From Candidatus Thorarchaeota archaeon (GTDB lineage Archaea; Asgardarchaeota; Thorarchaeia; Thorarchaeales; Thorarchaeaceae): DNA of 64,000 nt. Location: NCBI GenBank assembly GCA_019057475.1, contig DXJO01000010.1:43460-107459 (forward strand). The letters are read 5' to 3'. Below are positions 3,725-20,951 of the stretch, one piece after another. A program made the translations under genes and the position numbers. The notes beneath the pieces were generated by a model, which saw only the letters and a program-made list of their open reading frames with translations, was not told the origin of the DNA and did not search any database. Position 1 is the stretch's first letter, and each line of letters starts with the position of its first letter.

Positions 3725-5305
3725 ATGTCTGGGCAAGTCTTGATAGTTGATGCGTTGAGTGTTGGGTCCGGTCGTCGTGGAAGTTCGCGCGACTCAATTG
3801 GATGTGGCCCGCGCACAGTAGCTGGCGTAATGGAAACTCATGCGGTTCCCTGCAGAATCAAGAGAGCTGAGGCTGTTCTGTTTGCAAAAGGTCGAACTCG
3901 GGGGTTTGAGCATCTAGCTATTAGCGCGATGACGATGGACTTGCCAGCTACTCGGAGCATTGTCGCACAGTGGCGTTGGGCACACCCCCGTGGGAGAATC
4001 ATCGTCGGGGGACCAATTGCATCGAGGCCTCATGATGTTCTAAAGGAGGTCCGGCCTGATGTACTCGTGATAGGAGAGGGCGAGGCAACCCTTAATGAGC
4101 TGCTCCTTGCTGGTTTTCTTGAGGAACGCATTGACCTAGCTCCGATTGCCGGGATTGGTTACATGAATGGCTCTTATCCAGTCGTTACAGAACCCCGCAA
4201 TCTTCTTTCCGCCGCTGATATCTCCACACAGTATCAACCGTCTCGTGTTAGGATTGTAGACTACCCAGCCTACCAAGCCAGCAGGGTTTACGTAGAAGCA
4301 ATTCGCGGGTGTTCGAACTTCAGGAGGACATCTCTCACTCTGCCGGACGGTCGAAAGTGTTCCGACTGCAATAACTGTGACTCCGCTGACCCGCACGAAC
4401 GACTGGATTGTCCTGAGAACATTCCCCCTGGTTGTGGTTTCTGCAGCGTACCTGCAGTGTGGGGTTCTCCAAGAAGTCGGTTTCAGCAGTCCATTGTCAA
4501 CGAGGTAAGAGAGCTCCTAGACTTGGGAGTTCACAGAGTTGTACTGGAGGCTCCTGGCTTCCTAGATTACATGCGAGGGAGCGAACCACTCACTGATCCA
4601 TGTCACCCTCCCGCCAATCTCGAAGCATTAACCAAGCTGCTAAAGGAACTCAAATCACTTCCTCAACTTTCCGAGGGAACGGCTCATCTATCCATTGAGA
4701 ATCTAAAGGCGTGTTTGTTTACGGATGAAGTTGCAGACGTTTTCGCAAAGCACCTTGGTGACACAGCACCCAATATTGGCATTGAAACTGGCTCCGAACA
4801 ACATATGCGCCAAATCGGTAAGTGTGGTAGTCCTGAAGATGTTGTGAGAGCTGTTAGAATCGCAAAAGCACATGGAATGCTTCCCTACGTTTACTTCATC
4901 TACGGCCTTCCTGGGGAGAGCTTTGTCACTGTGGAAGAGTCGGTCAAACTAATGCGCCAACTAGACGAGGCAGGCGCCGCTCGAATCATAATGTATGGGT
5001 TCCGTGCCCTGCCGGGGTCAGCCTTTGAAGAGTTCCAAGAACCTGACATGCGTGACCCTGGAGGCGAGCGACTACGAAATGTAGCAAACCACATTAATCG
5101 TCGCAAGAAAGAAACCTATGTTGGTAGAGTGATACGGGGGATTGCTGCAGAACCGTCATGGAGCCGCCACGGTTACACCATGGTCTACCCTCTGGGCGAT
5201 GGACCACTCATGACAGTTCACGGTGGATATTCTGCCGGAGCCATTGTAGATGTCAAAGTGACAGAGGTGTTGAGTGCCGGTCTACTTGGCGGAGTAGCCG
5301 TTTAG
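3725..5305 (+). CDS. Radical SAM protein with an N-terminal B12-binding-like Rossmann domain and a C-terminal TRAM domain. It is MTTase-like, and its cluster motif is interrupted.
   Basis: RIIVGGPIAS...VLVIGEGE (B12-like domain). RGC...(CSDCNNC...C insert)...PPGCGFCSV (interrupted cluster motif). C-terminal TRAM-like beta-barrel (HGGYSAGAIVDVKVTEV). Confidence 0.55.
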   Translation: MSGQVLIVDALSVGSGRRGSSRDSIGCGPRTVAGVMETHAVPCRIKRAEAVLFAKGRTRGFEHLAISAMTMDLPATRSIVAQWRWAHPRGRIIVGGPIASRPHDVLKEVRPDVLVIGEGEATLNELLLAGFLEERIDLAPIAGIGYMNGSYPVVTEPRNLLSAADISTQYQPSRVRIVDYPAYQASRVYVEAIRGCSNFRRTSLTLPDGRKCSDCNNCDSADPHERLDCPENIPPGCGFCSVPAVWGSPRSRFQQSIVNEVRELLDLGVHRVVLEAPGFLDYMRGSEPLTDPCHPPANLEALTKLLKELKSLPQLSEGTAHLSIENLKACLFTDEVADVFAKHLGDTAPNIGIETGSEQHMRQIGKCGSPEDVVRAVRIAKAHGMLPYVYFIYGLPGESFVTVEESVKLMRQLDEAGAARIIMYGFRALPGSAFEEFQEPDMRDPGGERLRNVANHINRRKKETYVGRVIRGIAAEPSWSRHGYTMVYPLGDGPLMTVHGGYSAGAIVDVKVTEVLSAGLLGGVAV

Positions 5306-5379
5306 GGCTGCGACTTGCTCGTTGTCTAAGGCAAAACTTCTTATTGCTAACTTCAAGTGACTCCGGCTGGTGCTCTAGT

Positions 5380-5523
5380 ATGGTCTACACTTGCTTTTCC
5401 TGTAAGCATGAAGTTACGCCCGAAGGACTAAAGACCTTGCCCGGCGTAAAGTGCCCCTACTGTGGTGGACGAATTCTGTACAAGGTTCGCCCTCCTGTTG
5501 TTAAGCGAGTTAAGGGCGTCTAG
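5380..5523 (+). CDS. rpoP: DNA-directed RNA polymerase subunit P (Rpb12/RpoP), 47 aa.
   Basis: MVYTCFSCKHEV...VKCPYCGGRILYKVRPP Zn ribbon. It lies inside a longer spurious 121-aa ORF (5158..5523). The internal ATG at 5380 is in frame. Confidence 0.75.
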   Translation: MVYTCFSCKHEVTPEGLKTLPGVKCPYCGGRILYKVRPPVVKRVKGV

Positions 5524-5653
5524 TTTGTTCCCTTTTTTGTTTCACAATGTTCTATGGCTTGTATACTAGAAACGCAGCTACTACGATTGAAGCCAAGAAT
5601 AGCATCACAAAAAGGACAGACAAAATCTTTCTCTTTAGAGCGTATCTCAATAC

Positions 5654-6652
5654 CTACTCCTCCGTTTCACCTATGAGAATTTTCCCTAGCTTTTCTAGAC
5701 CCTCAATCCCTCTTATTTCCCCCTCAAAGAGCGGAACCACCGTCAGGCTCAGGTCAGAGTACAGGTCTCTGATATCCTTGAGGTTTGTCTGCTGCATTTG
5801 CCGTCGTGTAGCGCAAAACTTGCACGTTGGATTTGGTGGCACAAGATGATTCACCACAATACTACTGACAGGTATTTTCCATTTGTCCAAGCTATGCATA
5901 AGCCGTTGGGTTTCAAAGACGGCCATCGCTTCAGGTATTAGGACTACCACAAACTGCGTCAGCTCAGGGTCGGACAGCTGGATTCGTGCAGATCGTATCT
6001 TGTCCTTCATCATCTGCATCATCTGCCAAGAATTATCTTCTTGTTCAGCTCCTCCGAACATACCCTTGAGACCCGCAATCATTGAGCTCATTCTTTCTCG
6101 CATTGTAAGTAGCTTTCCCATCCAGCTGTCAAGAAGGTCTGGCAGCTCTAGCAGCTTCAGAGTATGCCCGGTGGGGGCAGTGTCGAATATGACCCGGTCG
6201 TAGGAACTGTCTTCCAGGTATTCTAGCATCTTCCCAAAAGCCATAGCTTCGTCAGAGCCAGGCGGAGACATTCCACCCATATCACCCATTAACTGTGCGG
6301 CCATGGCTCCTTCGGATCCCATCGCGCCTGATCCCATTGCATTCTGGAATTCAGCCATTCCCTTCTCGGTGTTGATCTCCAGTCCCCAGAGATTACCCAC
6401 ACCTTCTATTGACACTTCATTGCCGCCACTCAGGTTCTGATCAAAACTATCACTAAGACTGTGGGCTGGGTCGGTTGAGAGAACTAGAGTTCTGTAGCCG
6501 TGCTTGGCTGATAGAATCGCCATTGCACCGGCGCAGCTGGTCTTTCCAACGCCACCCTTCCCGCCAGAGAGTATGAACTTGATATTACCGTTGTAGACTA
6601 TATCCTTGATACCCATGGACTTCGACTCGTGATGTTTCGCACCACGATACAT
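5654..6652 (-). CDS. ArsA/Get3 (TRC40)-family anion-transporting/targeting ATPase.
   Basis: GGKGGVGKTSCAG P-loop plus the DTAPTGHTLKLLELP signature of ArsA/Get3. Confidence 0.8.
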   Translation of the reverse strand: MYRGAKHHESKSMGIKDIVYNGNIKFILSGGKGGVGKTSCAGAMAILSAKHGYRTLVLSTDPAHSLSDSFDQNLSGGNEVSIEGVGNLWGLEINTEKGMAEFQNAMGSGAMGSEGAMAAQLMGDMGGMSPPGSDEAMAFGKMLEYLEDSSYDRVIFDTAPTGHTLKLLELPDLLDSWMGKLLTMRERMSSMIAGLKGMFGGAEQEDNSWQMMQMMKDKIRSARIQLSDPELTQFVVVLIPEAMAVFETQRLMHSLDKWKIPVSSIVVNHLVPPNPTCKFCATRRQMQQTNLKDIRDLYSDLSLTVVPLFEGEIRGIEGLEKLGKILIGETEE

Positions 6653-14851: not shown

Positions 14852-16249
14852 ATGGAGCAGCTGATTCCTGTCCATGTAGGCCTGCTTGGTCACATCGACC
14901 ATGGCAAGACTGAGCTAGCTAGAGCTTTGAGCGAAAAGGTCTCCACAGCTGGCTTGGACGGCCATCCGCAGGCCAAGAGCCGAGGCATTACGATAGATCT
15001 TGGCTTCTCAATGTTCGTGTTGGACAATTATCTTGTTACGCTCGTTGACGCTCCCGGTCATGCAGATCTCATTAGGAGCGTTGTATCCGGGACGAACATA
15101 ATTGACGCTGCAATCCTGACAGTCGCTGCCAACGAAGGACCCATGGTGCAAACAGGAGAGCACATTGTGGTTCTCCAGTCCATGGGAATTGACACTGTAA
15201 TTGTTGCGATAACCAAGGTCGACTTGGTCGATAGCGAAGTGCTCGCCAAGGTCATTGAGAGGACAAAAAGTGCATTGAGCGATTCAGGAGTGTCGACTGA
15301 CTATTTCATCCCGATTTCCGCTACTACTGGCTTAGGCATTGAACAGCTCAAGGATGCACTGGCTGCAATCCTAGAGCCTCGACAGCGTGACGTGAAAGGT
15401 TCCTTACTGATGCCGATAGACCATGCGTTTCCAATCAAGGGCCATGGCACAGTTCTTACTGGCACGATTCTACGTGGTCAGGTTTCAGTTGGAGACACTA
15501 TACAGGTGATGCCTCAAGGTTCAATGGCTAAAATCAGATCCCTGCAAACATACGGCGACGAGCGTAGAACTGCGAAGGCAGGCGACAGAGTGGGCGCCAA
15601 TATCCCCGACTTGGATGACAAGATGATTAGTCGCGGTGATTATGTGTGCACTCCAGGCTCCATGACAAAGACAACAGGGATCATTGCCCGTATTCGTATC
15701 AACCCGCTGTATCGTGGCAGAGTGACAAGCAGAATGGTGCTTAACGCCACGGTGGGTATGCCGAATGTGATATCAGAGATTATTCCATTTGAGACCGAGA
15801 ATGATATCCGCATCGCCGTTTCAGACATTGGAAATGATGAGTTTGACGCGGCCATTTTGTTCAAGAGGATAATTGGCACAGAACTTGGACTCCGGCTTCT
15901 TCTAATGCGCACTGATCTGCCTCCTACAGTCATGCGGATAATCGGCGCAGGCGAAGTCACGGATATTCCTACGGAAATTCGCTTGTTTAAGAAGAAGGTC
16001 CGGGTTGGCAGGGTGTCCCGAATTCGTGAGGCCGACGTGCTGGTCGAGGGGCTTGCCTCCAAGAAGGAGATTGCTGACTCACTCAAGGGTGTTTTTATCA
16101 AGACACGGAATGATGTGAAAGGAGTGATTGAACAGCCCTTTGGCACACGTGGAGTAGTGTCAGCTACATTTGATAACCCCGTGGAAGAAGGTGAAGATAT
16201 CATCTATGAGCGGCTGGGTAAAGAGGAGGTATATCGATTTGGACAATGA
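14852..16249 (+). CDS. selB: Selenocysteine-specific elongation factor (archaeal aSelB/eEFSec type).
   Basis: GHIDHGKT, DAPGH, ITKVD GTPase motifs and RGITIDLGF. About 465 aa with a short domain IV. Its 3' end overlaps SepSecS. Confidence 0.75.
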   Translation: MEQLIPVHVGLLGHIDHGKTELARALSEKVSTAGLDGHPQAKSRGITIDLGFSMFVLDNYLVTLVDAPGHADLIRSVVSGTNIIDAAILTVAANEGPMVQTGEHIVVLQSMGIDTVIVAITKVDLVDSEVLAKVIERTKSALSDSGVSTDYFIPISATTGLGIEQLKDALAAILEPRQRDVKGSLLMPIDHAFPIKGHGTVLTGTILRGQVSVGDTIQVMPQGSMAKIRSLQTYGDERRTAKAGDRVGANIPDLDDKMISRGDYVCTPGSMTKTTGIIARIRINPLYRGRVTSRMVLNATVGMPNVISEIIPFETENDIRIAVSDIGNDEFDAAILFKRIIGTELGLRLLLMRTDLPPTVMRIIGAGEVTDIPTEIRLFKKKVRVGRVSRIREADVLVEGLASKKEIADSLKGVFIKTRNDVKGVIEQPFGTRGVVSATFDNPVEEGEDIIYERLGKEEVYRFGQ

Positions 16250-17555
16250 TATCGAAAAACGGTTGACTGACCTTATACCTGAAAACATGGCCCGTCGCGG
16301 CCGCATCACGATTGACGCATTATTGGCTCCAGTGAAGGACATTCTAAACAGACAGAGATTCCCTGACAGGCCTCTCACGGAACGTCAGGTGGAGCTGATG
16401 TTTACACTCCTCTCTTCAATGGATACCGATAAGGATCCCGCAGCTGCCCGGGTTGGCGAAAGAGAAGGTCGAACTATCTCGCCTCTTCTTGATCGTCTAT
16501 CTGCTGGTTTCAACCACGGAATTGGCCGAAGCGGCCACCTCATGGCGCCGCAACCAAAGGCTGCAGGTGCCTCTCTGATGCAGCAGGTGACAAATCATGT
16601 TGCCCTTGATGCTATTCGACGGTTAGGCCTTGAGAACGTCCGGGCAGGATTAGTTACCCCCTTGTCAACTGGAATGAGCATTGCTCTGATACTTGGCGCA
16701 TTGCGTCGCACCTTGGGCATCAAAGAAGTTCTCTATCCGCGTATTGATCATGCATCTCCTCGTCGGGCGATTTCATTCGCTGGTCTTCAGGAAATTCGCG
16801 TTTCCACGATTCTTGAAGGAGATGCAGTGCGGGTTGATCTTGCAGAGCTTGAAAGCCGTCTGTCAAAGAGAAATGAAGCAGCTGTACTTGCCACAACCAC
16901 GTTCTTTCCCCCTCGCGAGTCGGACCCGGTGAAAGATATCGCCAAGCTGTGCGCTGAGAGTGGTGCTCCCTTAGTAATCAATAACGCCTATGGGGTTCAA
17001 TCGGAAGCCATCATGCATAGTATTCGATCTGCAATAGATGCGGGACGAGTTGATGCAGTGGTTCAGAGCAGCGACAAGAATTTTCTCACTCCTGTCGGAG
17101 GATCCATTATTGTTTCACCAGACAAGGAGATTATCGATAGTACTGCTGAAACATATGCAGGCAGAGCCACTGCAGCGCCGGTTGTTCAGACCCTTGCAGC
17201 ATTGTTACTGACTGGCCACGAGGAGTATACACGACTTCAAGCTGAGCAGATTGAAAACCTCACTTACTTGAGGGAACAACTGAGCTCCGTTGCTGACTCA
17301 ATAGGACAAAGACTGTTGGAGGTCGAGAACCACGTGGCATGTGCTATGACTCTGAATGGTCTGAATGCAAGAGAGATAGGTGCTCGGCTCTACAACTTGA
17401 GAGTGACAGGGCCGCGCGTTGTGGAAAAGGGAGAAGAGGGGTCTTCCGTTGATAACTATCCCCACGACTACATCGTGATGAACGCAGCGATAGGAGCGAA
17501 GAGAGAACATATAGAGCAAGCTGCAGTGAAGCTTCATAAGGCGGCCAGTAAGTAG
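16206..17555 (+). CDS. spcS: O-phosphoseryl-tRNA(Sec) selenium transferase (SepSecS).
   Basis: Colinear with SepSecS as I recall the M. jannaschii sequence: ARVGEREGR, GIGRSGHLMAPQPKAAGAS, TTFFPPRESD, VVQSSDKNFLTPVGG (PLP lysine region), YNLRVTGPR, HDYIVMNAAIG. Confidence 0.85.
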   Translation: MSGWVKRRYIDLDNDIEKRLTDLIPENMARRGRITIDALLAPVKDILNRQRFPDRPLTERQVELMFTLLSSMDTDKDPAAARVGEREGRTISPLLDRLSAGFNHGIGRSGHLMAPQPKAAGASLMQQVTNHVALDAIRRLGLENVRAGLVTPLSTGMSIALILGALRRTLGIKEVLYPRIDHASPRRAISFAGLQEIRVSTILEGDAVRVDLAELESRLSKRNEAAVLATTTFFPPRESDPVKDIAKLCAESGAPLVINNAYGVQSEAIMHSIRSAIDAGRVDAVVQSSDKNFLTPVGGSIIVSPDKEIIDSTAETYAGRATAAPVVQTLAALLLTGHEEYTRLQAEQIENLTYLREQLSSVADSIGQRLLEVENHVACAMTLNGLNAREIGARLYNLRVTGPRVVEKGEEGSSVDNYPHDYIVMNAAIGAKREHIEQAAVKLHKAASK

Positions 17556-17585: not shown

Positions 17586-18236
17586 TTGAATGAGCTTGAA
17601 GGCAATGTGAAGGTTTCACGCACACACGAATACGAGAAGACTGACCCGGTCACAGTTTTCAAACTTGCATGGTATGCAATAGCATCAAAGCCAGGTGTCT
17701 TGCTGGCTGATCACAGCGAGGCCGAGAGTCAATCATTCAAAGGTGAAGCAATGTTCACCGCGAAGATTGACCAGAAGCCCATCAAAATAAAGGTCGATGT
17801 CGACGAGGAACAAGGTTCTGTTGAGATGACTGGATGGGGCGAAGATGAAGTTGCCCTCGGCACCTATCTGGATGGTGCAATGGATGCCCTGAAAAAGTCC
17901 AGCGACAAGTATCTCAGTCTTGCAGATGAAGAAAAACAAAAGATCCGAAGAGCACTCATTGCAAAGACGTGCTGGGATCGGATTATCCACAAGATACTCA
18001 ACAAGGCTCCACTCAGCGACATCTATTTCCAGCTGGCACATGGCAGAGAGATGATGATCAAGGCGACTGAAGGTGATGAACTCAACCCAATCACACTCAC
18101 CACGAGTGGATGGTTATCACGGATAGAGCCACTGCCTAAGGACGAGGCACCTCCTGCGGGTCTTGCTACGGAACTGGCAAAGAAATGCATCGAGTGGAAG
18201 AGGGGCACACAGGAAGTCATTCAGAACTTTCTCTAA
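17586..18236 (+). CDS. Hypothetical protein embedded in the Sec locus.
   Basis: 216-aa ORF with normal composition and no known motif. Confidence 0.4.
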   Translation: MNELEGNVKVSRTHEYEKTDPVTVFKLAWYAIASKPGVLLADHSEAESQSFKGEAMFTAKIDQKPIKIKVDVDEEQGSVEMTGWGEDEVALGTYLDGAMDALKKSSDKYLSLADEEKQKIRRALIAKTCWDRIIHKILNKAPLSDIYFQLAHGREMMIKATEGDELNPITLTTSGWLSRIEPLPKDEAPPAGLATELAKKCIEWKRGTQEVIQNFL

Positions 18237-18403: not shown

Positions 18404-18787
18404 CTAGCTGTGCTTCTTATGTAACGTGATAGATCCCCCTGCGTGGGGGAATGCTTCAACCTCAATAAGGAATGGGTTCCGCGATTCACCGACCTTTGTC
18501 CACATGACCTGATCGCGACGATAGTATCTGTAATCTGCGCCATTATGTCGAATCTCAATCATTGATGTGGGAGGAAGATCGCTAAGGGATGCAATCTCCA
18601 ACTTTTCTCCGGCTCTGGTCTGCTTGGGCTGAGAAAGGAAGACTGGAAAGATTTCATCATTGATAGGTACAAGCAATGCCACATGCGGACGGTCTACGCA
18701 GTCCCAGAGTTTCGGAACTGGGGGTGTCCTGCACGAGAATGCTCCATATGATGAGCTTAGAGCTTGGAAGATACCTGCATCAATCAC
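18404..18787 (-). CDS. Hypothetical protein.
   Basis: 127-aa ORF. An AT-rich putative promoter lies 5' of it at 18800-18900. Confidence 0.3.
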   Translation of the reverse strand: MIDAGIFQALSSSYGAFSCRTPPVPKLWDCVDRPHVALLVPINDEIFPVFLSQPKQTRAGEKLEIASLSDLPPTSMIEIRHNGADYRYYRRDQVMWTKVGESRNPFLIEVEAFPHAGGSITLHKKHS

Positions 18788-19044
18788 GTGACTCTGGTCT
18801 CCATCGAGTTCCTTGCATGACCCATTCCTAGAGTAAGGAATTACTGTGATATATTAATAATAGATAGCATATAACTATTTATAGTAATTGGTTTGTCATC
18901 TCCACGCAATGGCACACACCTTGGATGCCCATGAACTCCCTTTCCCCGCACGATATCTCTGAGAAATAAGAACCAGGCACATACAACTTCGCATCACAGT
19001 ATGCTACCCTCAGATTTAAGTCGCAATCACGATATTCTGCATTT

Positions 19045-19135
19045 GGCCCCCTACAGAGCTGGTGGTCTGGTTCCGTGGGCTTCAAACCCATGATCGTGCA
19101 AGCGATAAGAGTTCGATTCTCTTAGGAGGCCGCCA
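19045..19135 (+). tRNA. tRNA-Sec (anticodon UCA), folded by hand.
   Basis: Acceptor GGCCCCCTA pairs with TAGGAGGCC (19123-19131), with one C.A mismatch. G73 is at 19132 and CCA is encoded at 19133-19135. D arm is CAGAGC-TGGT-GGTCTG. Anticodon stem is 6 bp, CGTGGG/CCCATG. Anticodon loop is CTTCAAA, with TCA at 19082-19084. Variable hairpin is ATCG-TGCAAG-CGAT. T arm is AGAG-TTCGATT-CTCT. TTTAAG TATA-like box at 19015-19020. Confidence 0.7.
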
Positions 19136-19163
19136 TAGCCGTTTTCCACAAATCTCTCTCTTC

Positions 19164-19928
19164 TCATAGCAGAGCTTGCAGTTCCTTCAGAATAACATCT
19201 CTCGCCATCTTGGGACTAATCTTATCGTAGGCTGCACGTTTGAGAACTCTTAGTCGGATGATGGATACTTCTCGGTTTCCACGTAACTCGGGGTGATTCT
19301 GAAGAAATCCTGATACCGTGTTTCTAGTGGCAAGGTCCAGCTTTTCGAATTCATTATCACCTGCAAGAGTTGACTTCGGTTGCCTGATGACTTCGAGTGA
19401 GCGAATGGTATTCACAATTTCGCTGACAGTAGAATCAAGATCAGGAGTGGACATATCCACTTCAGCAAGGGGGCAATCCCACAGGTATCGAGCCCCGGGT
19501 CTGTCGAATCTTTCACTGATTCGTTGGATGACATGATCCGGAATCCTTGTGCCGGGTCTCTCTCTATTCCACTTGAGTGCCTCTTCAAGGGGCGTTGTCA
19601 CATGGATTATCCCAAATGCACACTTCGCGTCAATAGCGATCTCTAGAAGCTCATGCCGCATGCTATTGTAGTAATTTGTATCGTCGTGAATCACACTCTT
19701 TCCTTTGCTAACGAGCGTTTCCACTCTTGCTAATGCAGCCTGACGTACCTCACCCTCCTTCTCCGGCACGAAATCTGAGTAGTAGGTATCATCTCGCCAT
19801 TCATCAGTTCTGACAACCTCAACTTCAGGCCCTTTCGAATGAACTGCTAATCTAATTGCATCTGCCAGAGATGATTTTCCAGATGCTGGTAGCCCACAAA
19901 GGGCTAGTATGAACTGATTCATTGGCAA
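19164..19928 (-). CDS. pstk: L-seryl-tRNA(Sec) kinase (PSTK).
   Basis: ALCGLPASGKSS P-loop, VIHDDTNYYNSMR, RERPGTRIP and FDRPG are colinear with archaeal PSTK as I recall the MJ1538 sequence. Confidence 0.8.
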   Translation of the reverse strand: MPMNQFILALCGLPASGKSSLADAIRLAVHSKGPEVEVVRTDEWRDDTYYSDFVPEKEGEVRQAALARVETLVSKGKSVIHDDTNYYNSMRHELLEIAIDAKCAFGIIHVTTPLEEALKWNRERPGTRIPDHVIQRISERFDRPGARYLWDCPLAEVDMSTPDLDSTVSEIVNTIRSLEVIRQPKSTLAGDNEFEKLDLATRNTVSGFLQNHPELRGNREVSIIRLRVLKRAAYDKISPKMARDVILKELQALL

Positions 19929-20009: not shown

Positions 20010-20951
20010 CTATGGTTTGATTGTGATTTGGAGGTTAATAGCGAGATCCTTGTAGCGGTTTCTCACCGTGACTTCTGTCACGTTGGATGCCTCTGCAATC
20101 TCACGCTGCGTGCGTCTGTCATTCTCGATGATACCAGCAATGTACAACGCTGCAGCCGCCAGACCACCCGGATCCTTGCCTGCGGTGAGGCCTCTAGCCC
20201 TCGCATTGTTGATTATACCTATTGCAGTCTGGACTGTCTTGCCCTCCAATGCTAGGTCTGAGGATATTCTAGGCATTAGGTCGTTTGCAGATGCTAGGGG
20301 AACCTTCAATTTGACGTTGCGTAGGATAAGCCTTACGCACTGGCCAAGCTCCTTCCTGTTGATTCTCGCCTCAGTCACTACCTCATCCAACTGGCGCGGA
20401 ATCTTGTGAATTCTGCACGAGAGGTAAATCGATGCCGCAACCATTCCCTCAATGCTCCTACCTCTGACCAACCGTGTGTTCAGGGCTTTCCGGTAAACGA
20501 GGGCCGCTGTTTCCTTGGTTTCATGAGGAACGCCCAGTTGGGATGTAAGGCGATCCATCTCACTCATTGCGATGCTGAGATTCCTGTGTTGAGAGCTGTG
20601 CACCATGGTCCGAATTTGCCACTTGCGCATTCGATAGATTGCTGCACGCTGGCTAGCTGCAATTGAGCGTCCGCTGGCATCTCTATCGCTCCAACCAATG
20701 GTCGTTGCAAGACCCTTGTCTGCCATCGTTAGTGTCATTGGTGAACCTGTTCTGGCTCGAGCATTTCTCTCTTCAGCAGTGAATGCTCTCCATTCGGGAC
20801 CAGTATCTACATGCCTATCACTGATCACACACCCGCACGACGTGCAGGTTTTCTCACCCCGGCTGCTGTCTTGGTAAAACTCGTTGCCACCACAGATGGT
20901 GCAAACTCTCATACCTGTTTTTCTATCTATAGCACGGACTGGTTTCGCCAT
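20010..20951 (-). CDS. tfb: Transcription initiation factor IIB (TFB), paralog 2.
   Basis: Zn ribbon CTICGG...CTSCGC plus cyclin repeats. About 55% identical to the TFB at 2177..3145. Confidence 0.9.
   Translation of the reverse strand: MAKPVRAIDRKTGMRVCTICGGNEFYQDSSRGEKTCTSCGCVISDRHVDTGPEWRAFTAEERNARARTGSPMTLTMADKGLATTIGWSDRDASGRSIAASQRAAIYRMRKWQIRTMVHSSQHRNLSIAMSEMDRLTSQLGVPHETKETAALVYRKALNTRLVRGRSIEGMVAASIYLSCRIHKIPRQLDEVVTEARINRKELGQCVRLILRNVKLKVPLASANDLMPRISSDLALEGKTVQTAIGIINNARARGLTAGKDPGGLAAAALYIAGIIENDRRTQREIAEASNVTEVTVRNRYKDLAINLQITIKP

Follow-up and report, generated by a model that had tools for sequence, protein, structure and literature searches.

A predicted tRNA-Sec gene of archaeal structural type in a cluster of selenocysteine genes from a Thorarchaeota archaeon

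The locus described here lies in a 64,000-nucleotide stretch (the window) of contig DXJO01000010.1 from a Candidatus Thorarchaeota archaeon, and consists of a candidate gene for the selenocysteine (Sec) transfer RNA, tRNA-Sec, at positions 19045-19135 of the forward (+) strand, together with the Sec-pathway protein genes on both sides of it. ARAGORN reports a tRNA-SeC(tca) at exactly 19045-19135 and no other tRNA in the window. The original prediction, made from the letters and their open reading frames (ORFs), had proposed a tRNA-Sec gene here and a test with the Infernal tRNA-Sec model; when the window was scanned with Infernal against all 4227 Rfam families at their gathering thresholds, tRNA-Sec (RF01852) was the only family to reach its gathering score, matching at 19045-19131 with 52.1 bits (gathering score 47, E = 1.3e-7 for the whole 64-kb window) in an alignment that spans the full model, positions 1-91 of 91. 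Such a match far exceeds what chance would produce. The limits of the 91-nt gene, encoded CCA included, are given by ARAGORN, by Rfam and by conservation, which among relatives starts at G1 and ends directly after CCA, with the flanks diverging at once. ARAGORN, RF01852, the fold and the surrounding Sec-gene cluster all agree, and with a probability of roughly 95% we read 19045-19135 as a single functional tRNA-Sec gene with anticodon UCA, of the archaeal structural type, in an Asgard archaeon of the Thorarchaeota lineage.

Read 5′ to 3′, the gene is GGCCCCCUA CA GAGCUGG UGGU CUGGUUC CGUGGG CUUCAAA CCCAUG AUCGUGCAAGCGAU A AGAG UUCGAUU CUCU UAGGAGGCC G CCA. The minimum free energy (MFE) fold of 19045-19135 is a cloverleaf with nine acceptor and four T-stem base pairs (9/4; –34.7 kcal/mol, z = –2.28 against shuffles), and RNAalifold also gives 9/4 as the best fold rather than a canonical 7/5 tRNA, the outcome that had been named as speaking against the prediction. 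The 9-nt 5′ strand of the acceptor stem, GGCCCCCUA (19045-19053), pairs with the 3′ strand, UAGGAGGCC (19123-19131), with one mismatch only, C19049.A19127 (hereafter C5.A68), as had been predicted and as direct reading, the MFE fold, the pair counts given below and RNAalifold confirm. Stacked on the T stem it makes up the expected 13-bp acceptor/T helix, 9 + 4 bp in both the MFE fold and RNAalifold.

A two-base linker, C19054 and A19055 (19054-19055), leads from the acceptor stem to the D arm (19056-19073), in which GAGCUGG (19056-19062) pairs with CUGGUUC (19067-19073) in a 7-bp stem that contains three G.U pairs and closes a 4-nt loop, UGGU (19063-19066). Here the original prediction has to be revised, as it had the UGGU loop right and gave the arm a 6-bp stem with a G.G mismatch and no clear 8/9 dinucleotide. 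That register was tried and rejected: the MFE fold, the Rfam alignment and RNAalifold give CA followed by 7 bp, a stem length to which the pair counts also point, and in the 7-bp register there is no G.G mismatch. The anticodon arm, the variable hairpin, G73 and CCA are placed as had been foreseen. The anticodon arm (19074-19092) has a 6-bp stem (19074-19079 with 19087-19092) and a 7-nt loop, CUUCAAA (19080-19086), that carries the anticodon UCA at 19082-19084, on which ARAGORN, Rfam and the MFE fold agree; the loop has U33 and a purine at position 37, both of which are required of a tRNA-Sec. It is followed by the 14-nt variable arm, AUCGUGCAAGCGAU (19093-19106; MFE, pair counts and RNAalifold), a 5-bp stem with a GNRA-type tetraloop, GCAA (19098-19101), then by a single unpaired base, A19107, at the junction with the T stem, and by the T arm (19108-19122; Rfam, MFE and RNAalifold), whose 4-bp stem AGAG/CUCU encloses the loop UUCGAUU. 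The discriminator G73 (19132) and the genomic CCA (19133-19135) can be read directly at 19132-19135, and GCCA is present in all full-length archaeal relatives recovered and absent from the eukaryotic-type ones.

The window gene, the genome loci and a metagenome-collection search for a pattern built from the conserved anticodon arm and T loop gave 81 distinct tRNA-SeC sequences in total. These comprise a 91-nt class of 30 sequences, to which the window gene belongs (the Thor type), a 93-nt archaeal class, a 92-nt archaeal class and an 87-88-nt eukaryote-type class without encoded CCA. All pair counts are based on an alignment of the 30 distinct Thor-type sequences (A3), in which 98.9% of cells are standard pairs and 13 of the 31 pairs are changed on both sides. 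None of 500 column shuffles matched any of the observed measures, and pairing falls to 27-52% when the 3′ strands are shifted out of register by one to three columns. With no structure supplied, RNAalifold returns from A3 the 9/4 form with a 7-bp D stem, identical to the MFE fold of the window sequence alone.

Pairs changed on both sides number six of nine in the acceptor stem and five of seven in the D stem, where 99.0% of cells are paired. In the anticodon stem, pair 32:46 is U-A in 26 sequences and C-G in four, and pair 50:61 of the variable arm is U-A in 20 and A-U in ten. The unpaired base at 19107 varies freely (A, G or U), and the two-base linker is CA in 22 sequences, UA in six and AA in two. 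Little or no variation is seen in the D loop (UGGU in 29 of 30) and the variable loop (GCAA 29, GAAA 1), and the PSTK identity pairs G2-C71 and C3-G70, both present in the window, are invariant (30/30). Because the search pattern dictated the anticodon loop, the T loop and the three inner pairs of the anticodon stem, and a filter dictated the T stem, the lack of variation at these sites in A3 counts for nothing. Between classes, compensatory change is seen in the T stem, GGGG/CCCC against GCGG/CCGC (93-nt relatives).

The tRNA gene is embedded in a group of Sec-pathway genes. Upstream on the same strand lies SelB/EFSec, the Sec-specific elongation factor (14852-16249, +), which matches TIGR00475 (selB) with 280 bits, above cutoff, and Pfam aSelB_III, and whose best match in the PDB is the archaeal SelB 4ac9 (E = 1.9e-94). 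SepSecS (16170-17555, +; PF05889, E = 5.6e-118; TIGR03531, 458.8 bits) comes next. Its start codon is uncertain: the TTG given in the ORF list would put the first 80 nt (16170-16249) inside the end of SelB, and because the TIGR03531 match begins only at residue 35 the true start probably lies further downstream, where in-frame ATGs occur at ~16206 and ~16287. It is followed by Sel_Asgard (17586-18236, +; NF045535, 225 bits, above cutoff) and, on the opposite strand, by an ORF of 127 amino acids from the ORF list (18404-18787, –) without a Pfam or NCBIfam match. Downstream of the tRNA, and convergent with it, PSTK (19164-19928, –) lies at a distance of 28 nt, so that the predicted position of the gene beside PSTK is upheld by Pfam and the PDB. 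The protein belongs to the Pfam KTI12/PSTK family (E = 2.1e-36), its best NCBIfam match, below the curated cutoff, is TIGR03574 (selen_PSTK) over the full length, and in the PDB its only full-length match is to the archaeal L-seryl-tRNA(Sec) kinase (3adb, 3a4l; E = 5e-23), with no KTI12 structure. SelB, SepSecS, tRNA-Sec and PSTK all fall within 5 kb. Beyond PSTK, ORF and family searches place a TFB gene at 20010-20951 (–).

This arrangement recurs in relatives. A scan of the genome collection with PSTK found ten loci, the closest 92% identical; six of them, including the five closest, are Thorarchaeota metagenome-assembled genomes (MAGs), and seven carry a 91-nt tRNA-SeC convergent with PSTK. 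The three distant PSTK loci (L008-L010, 29-35% identity) have no tRNA-Sec within the flanks fetched. Seven Thorarchaeota genome loci and 36 metagenome loci, all with this cluster, make up the 43 Thor-type loci on which the synteny counts are based. PSTK is convergent and 4-460 nt downstream of the tRNA in 39 of the 43; in three of the other four the downstream flank is too short to judge. L066 (Ga0316628_100006593) is the sole locus with ample downstream flank that lacks PSTK at the usual site, and has TFB 71 nt downstream of the tRNA. On the other side, Sel_Asgard ends 20-190 nt upstream of the tRNA on the same strand in 35 of 43 loci. The opposite-strand 127-aa ORF between the two occurs only in the window clade (the window, L001-L003 and L071), with 84-91% identity in L001-L003 and L071; in the other Thor-type loci, which do not have it, the tRNA directly follows Sel_Asgard. 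L088 and L101 share the flanks of the window clade, and their upstream DNA is too short to show the ORF.

Comparison with known tRNA-Sec genes places the window gene with those of archaea. Archaeal tRNA-Sec is defined by a UCA anticodon, G73, the 9/4 form, a 7-bp D stem, a 4-nt D loop and a long variable arm (PMC4989117, PMC5330540), and, where the original prediction had counted several hallmarks of tRNA-Sec, the window gene has every one of these published archaeal ones, as well as the PSTK identity pairs G2-C71 and C3-G70 of archaeal tRNA-Sec (PMC2330242). Eukaryotic tRNA-Sec shares the 9/4 form, the 4-nt D loop, the 6-bp anticodon stem, the long variable arm and the PSTK/SepSecS route, but differs in its 6-bp D stem (PMC5330540), C2-G71 (PMC2330242) and lack of an encoded CCA, none of which is found in the window gene; the 87-88-nt eukaryote-type sequences that we recovered end at G73. 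Bacterial selC has UCA, a 13-bp acceptor/T helix, a long variable arm and G73 in common with the window gene, but combines an 8/5 fold and a 6-bp D stem with SelA (PMC5330540), whereas the window combines 9/4 with PSTK and SepSecS and shows neither of the two bacterial structural markers.

Within the archaea, the tRNA-Sec of Lokiarchaeota has the same UCA, G73, 9/4 form, 7-bp D stem, 4-nt D loop and long variable arm (Mariotti et al. 2016, PMC4989117), but its gene was described as interrupted by a 31-nt intron in the T loop, whereas the window gene is uninterrupted, and its Sec machinery was reported on separate contigs except for EFsec ~6 kb away, whereas that of the window is clustered (PMC4989117). 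Methanococcales (M. maripaludis, M. jannaschii) share 9/4, the 7-bp D stem and invariant G2-C71 and C3-G70 (PMC2330242, PMC5330540); they belong to a different phylum, C5-G68 is well conserved in them where most Thor-type sequences have U5-A68, and, according to a 2024 survey (PMC11227280), the genes that adjoin the Sec genes of methanogens are not located close to Sec genes in Asgard archaea. The closest counterpart is the tRNA-Sec of Thorarchaeia itself, already reported (Sun et al. 2021, PMC9723677, with reference to Liu et al. 2018) and surveyed by Huang et al. 2024 (PMC11227280). It is the same gene in the same lineage, and the window copy differs by 2-3 bases from those of the MAGs L001-L003. 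The differences are minor: the window and its two closest relatives have C5.A68, and the clade has the extra ORF before the tRNA. The kind of gene is thus already known, and the window copy is a routine member of a described class that standard tools detect. The genome too is already public, since an identical Sel_Asgard protein is on an NCBI record.

The proposed pathway applies established knowledge of archaeal and eukaryotic Sec synthesis (PMC2330242, PMC5330540, PMC9723677) to the structure, covariation, conservation and linkage observed at this locus. The tRNA-Sec gene would be transcribed from its own TATA-like box at –30 and the transcript processed to a 91-nt RNA with the encoded CCA at its 3′ end. 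SerRS would then charge it with serine by way of G73 and the long variable arm, the neighbouring PSTK would phosphorylate the serine by recognition of G2-C71 and C3-G70, and the neighbouring SepSecS would, with selenophosphate, convert the phosphoserine to give Sec-tRNA-Sec. Finally, SelB/EFSec, also encoded alongside, would deliver Sec-tRNA-Sec to UGA codons marked by a Sec insertion sequence (SECIS) in mRNAs encoded elsewhere in the genome.

Several observations weigh against reading the gene as a functional tRNA-Sec. Its Rfam score is just 5 bits over the gathering score, and the TIGR03574 score of the adjacent PSTK (134.5 bits) is below the curated cutoff of 290.5. Within the Thor-type set the T stem and the inner anticodon stem yield no covariation support, the acceptor stem contains the C5.A68 mismatch, and both expression and aminoacylation of the tRNA are predictions. 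In addition, a quick, non-exhaustive six-frame scan through single TGA codons, which included no SECIS search, found no convincing selenoprotein gene in the 64-kb window; the TGAs that it met were out-of-frame or terminal only. With no client gene in the window, the use of the tRNA is therefore judged from the machinery rather than from clients, which would lie elsewhere in the genome.

If the tRNA were a Sec-like UGA suppressor, or allo-tRNA, that inserts serine or cysteine instead of selenocysteine, the missing clients would be in keeping with it, as would G73 and the long variable arm, which are also determinants for SerRS, and the tRNA would carry serine without the action of PSTK and SepSecS. 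Against such a role stand the length of the acceptor/T helix (13 bp) and of the D stem (7 bp), the pairs G2-C71 and C3-G70 (PMC2330242) and the physical proximity of PSTK, SepSecS and SelB in 43 loci. Moreover, the survey of Huang et al. (2024, PMC11227280) found Sec usage, together with selenoprotein genes, in 77.4% of Thorarchaeia; we regard the suppressor reading as very improbable. A decaying or silent tRNA-Sec pseudogene, with C5.A68 and the three D-stem G.U pairs (three of seven) as marks of erosion in the window copy, has about as little to recommend it. The C.A state is found identically in two other genomes (L001 and L002) and only there, the remaining Thor-type sequences having U-A (21), C-G (4) or U.G (2) at this pair (n = 30); because it is common to one small clade at an otherwise covarying pair, the mismatch is inherited and tolerated. 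The tRNA-Sec of Methanococcus voltae has C5-A68 as well (Sherrer et al. 2008, PMC2330242). All other pairs of the window copy are intact, its T, D and anticodon loops are canonical, the four flanking Sec genes are intact ORFs, and ARAGORN finds no second tRNA-Sec in the window. C5.A68 is neither a sequencing error nor a sign of decay.

The third alternative concerns the fold. The original prediction had described the gene as drawable either as 9/4 or as 8/5, and the 8/5 form, in which A19107 pairs with U19123 as a fifth T-stem pair, can indeed be drawn for the window sequence and pairs nearly as well overall (98.5%). Such a fold would suit a bacterial-type tRNA-Sec, such as might have arrived by horizontal transfer and be served by SelA. 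The two forms are separated by a single pair. In the 9/4 form, pair 9:79 is paired in all 30 sequences (A-U 27, C-G 1, G-C 1, G-U 1) with two double changes, whereas its 8/5 counterpart, 63:79, is a non-pair in four of 30 and has no double change; because the former covaries and the latter does not, 9/4 is favoured. The ninth pair also co-varies in the 93-nt class (A-U, with C-G in L019 and U-A in L035). RNAalifold picks 9/4, the 7-bp D stem is of the archaeal type (PMC5330540), and the neighbours are PSTK and SepSecS, of the archaeal/eukaryotic route, not SelA. Covariation and RNAalifold thus lead us to reject 8/5, and a bacterial-type gene at this locus is highly unlikely.

Asgard SECIS elements are reported to look eukaryote-like. 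Despite this, the thorarchaeal tRNA-Sec sides with archaea on the 7-bp D stem, G2-C71 and the encoded CCA, which is the one small comparative point that the gene adds. Beyond correct annotation its importance is slight. The gene indicates that this host can read UGA as selenocysteine, so that in-frame TGA codons are to be expected when its selenoprotein genes are called. The only puzzle nearby is the role of Sel_Asgard.

Sel_Asgard carries the NF045535 label ‘Sel_Asgard, putative selenocysteine system protein’ and has 305 homologues at E 0.001 or better; where organism names are given among those listed, all are Asgard. Its AlphaFold model is confident (predicted local distance difference test, pLDDT, 93.7; predicted template modelling score, pTM, 0.90) and has an N-terminal alpha+beta domain followed by a C-terminal helical bundle. 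The protein has no match in Pfam and, by sequence profile, none in the PDB at E up to 1, and its model has none there with Foldseek at E 0.001 or better; a literature search on the family name Sel_Asgard found nothing. A hypothetical protein confined to Asgard archaea is noted close to secS, efSec and pstk in the 2024 survey (PMC11227280), and that protein, matched by its description only, fits Sel_Asgard. The data speak neither for nor against direct RNA binding by Sel_Asgard. To our knowledge, archaea lack SBP2 and SECp43. One tentative idea, which we consider rather unlikely, is that Sel_Asgard serves the Sec pathway specifically and is produced together with the tRNA, for instance as an adaptor that handles tRNA-Sec or SECIS elements in place of SBP2/SECp43. 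The conserved operon-like cluster marks it as a candidate for the study of how SECIS elements are read in Asgard archaea without SBP2.

Signals that might direct transcription of the tRNA are present on both sides of it. The predicted TTTAAG box is found at 19015-19020 (+), –30 to –25 from the first base of the gene, and is a candidate archaeal TATA box. TTTAAG is strongly under-represented in the window as a whole (shuffles predict 20.8 copies over both strands, and 5 are present), and all five are on the + strand. A [C/T]TTAAG is found again at about –32 to –25, both within the window clade and in L006, L007, L021, L062, L072, L076, L106, L107 and L112; in the distant lineages that have it, the upstream neighbour differs from that of the window clade. 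This recurrence despite a differing upstream gene fits a dedicated archaeal TATA-type promoter with that presumed function. Since the opposite-strand 127-aa ORF is inserted upstream of the tRNA in the window clade, the tRNA there would need a promoter of its own. Downstream, a TTTT run 7-10 nt past CCA (19142-19145, +) is a candidate oligo-T terminator, and T-runs recur at this place in the window clade. Among 43 distinct flanks of Thor-type tRNA-Sec, 35 have T directly before G1. In many lineages a motif, GCCGTTACMTTTAGATT, is conserved 30-50 nt upstream of tRNA-Sec; it appears to include the Sel_Asgard stop codon and could double as a TATA-like element.

Other arrangements were met among the relatives. 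L006 and L007 have a tandem pair of TFB paralogues beside PSTK (3764-5930), which share 78% and 75% identity with the single TFB found there in the window. The tRNA of the 93-nt class (L018-L129) is followed by SepSecS after ~70 nt and preceded at 3-5 kb by an EFSec on the opposite strand, a layout like that of Lokiarchaeota but without the T-loop intron, which the search pattern excluded. In the 92-nt class (L028, L049 and L056) a convergent SepSecS-SelB-PSTK run begins 14 nt from the tRNA. L052, L075 and L092 are eukaryote-type marine metagenome contigs with two tRNA-Sec copies a few hundred bases apart.
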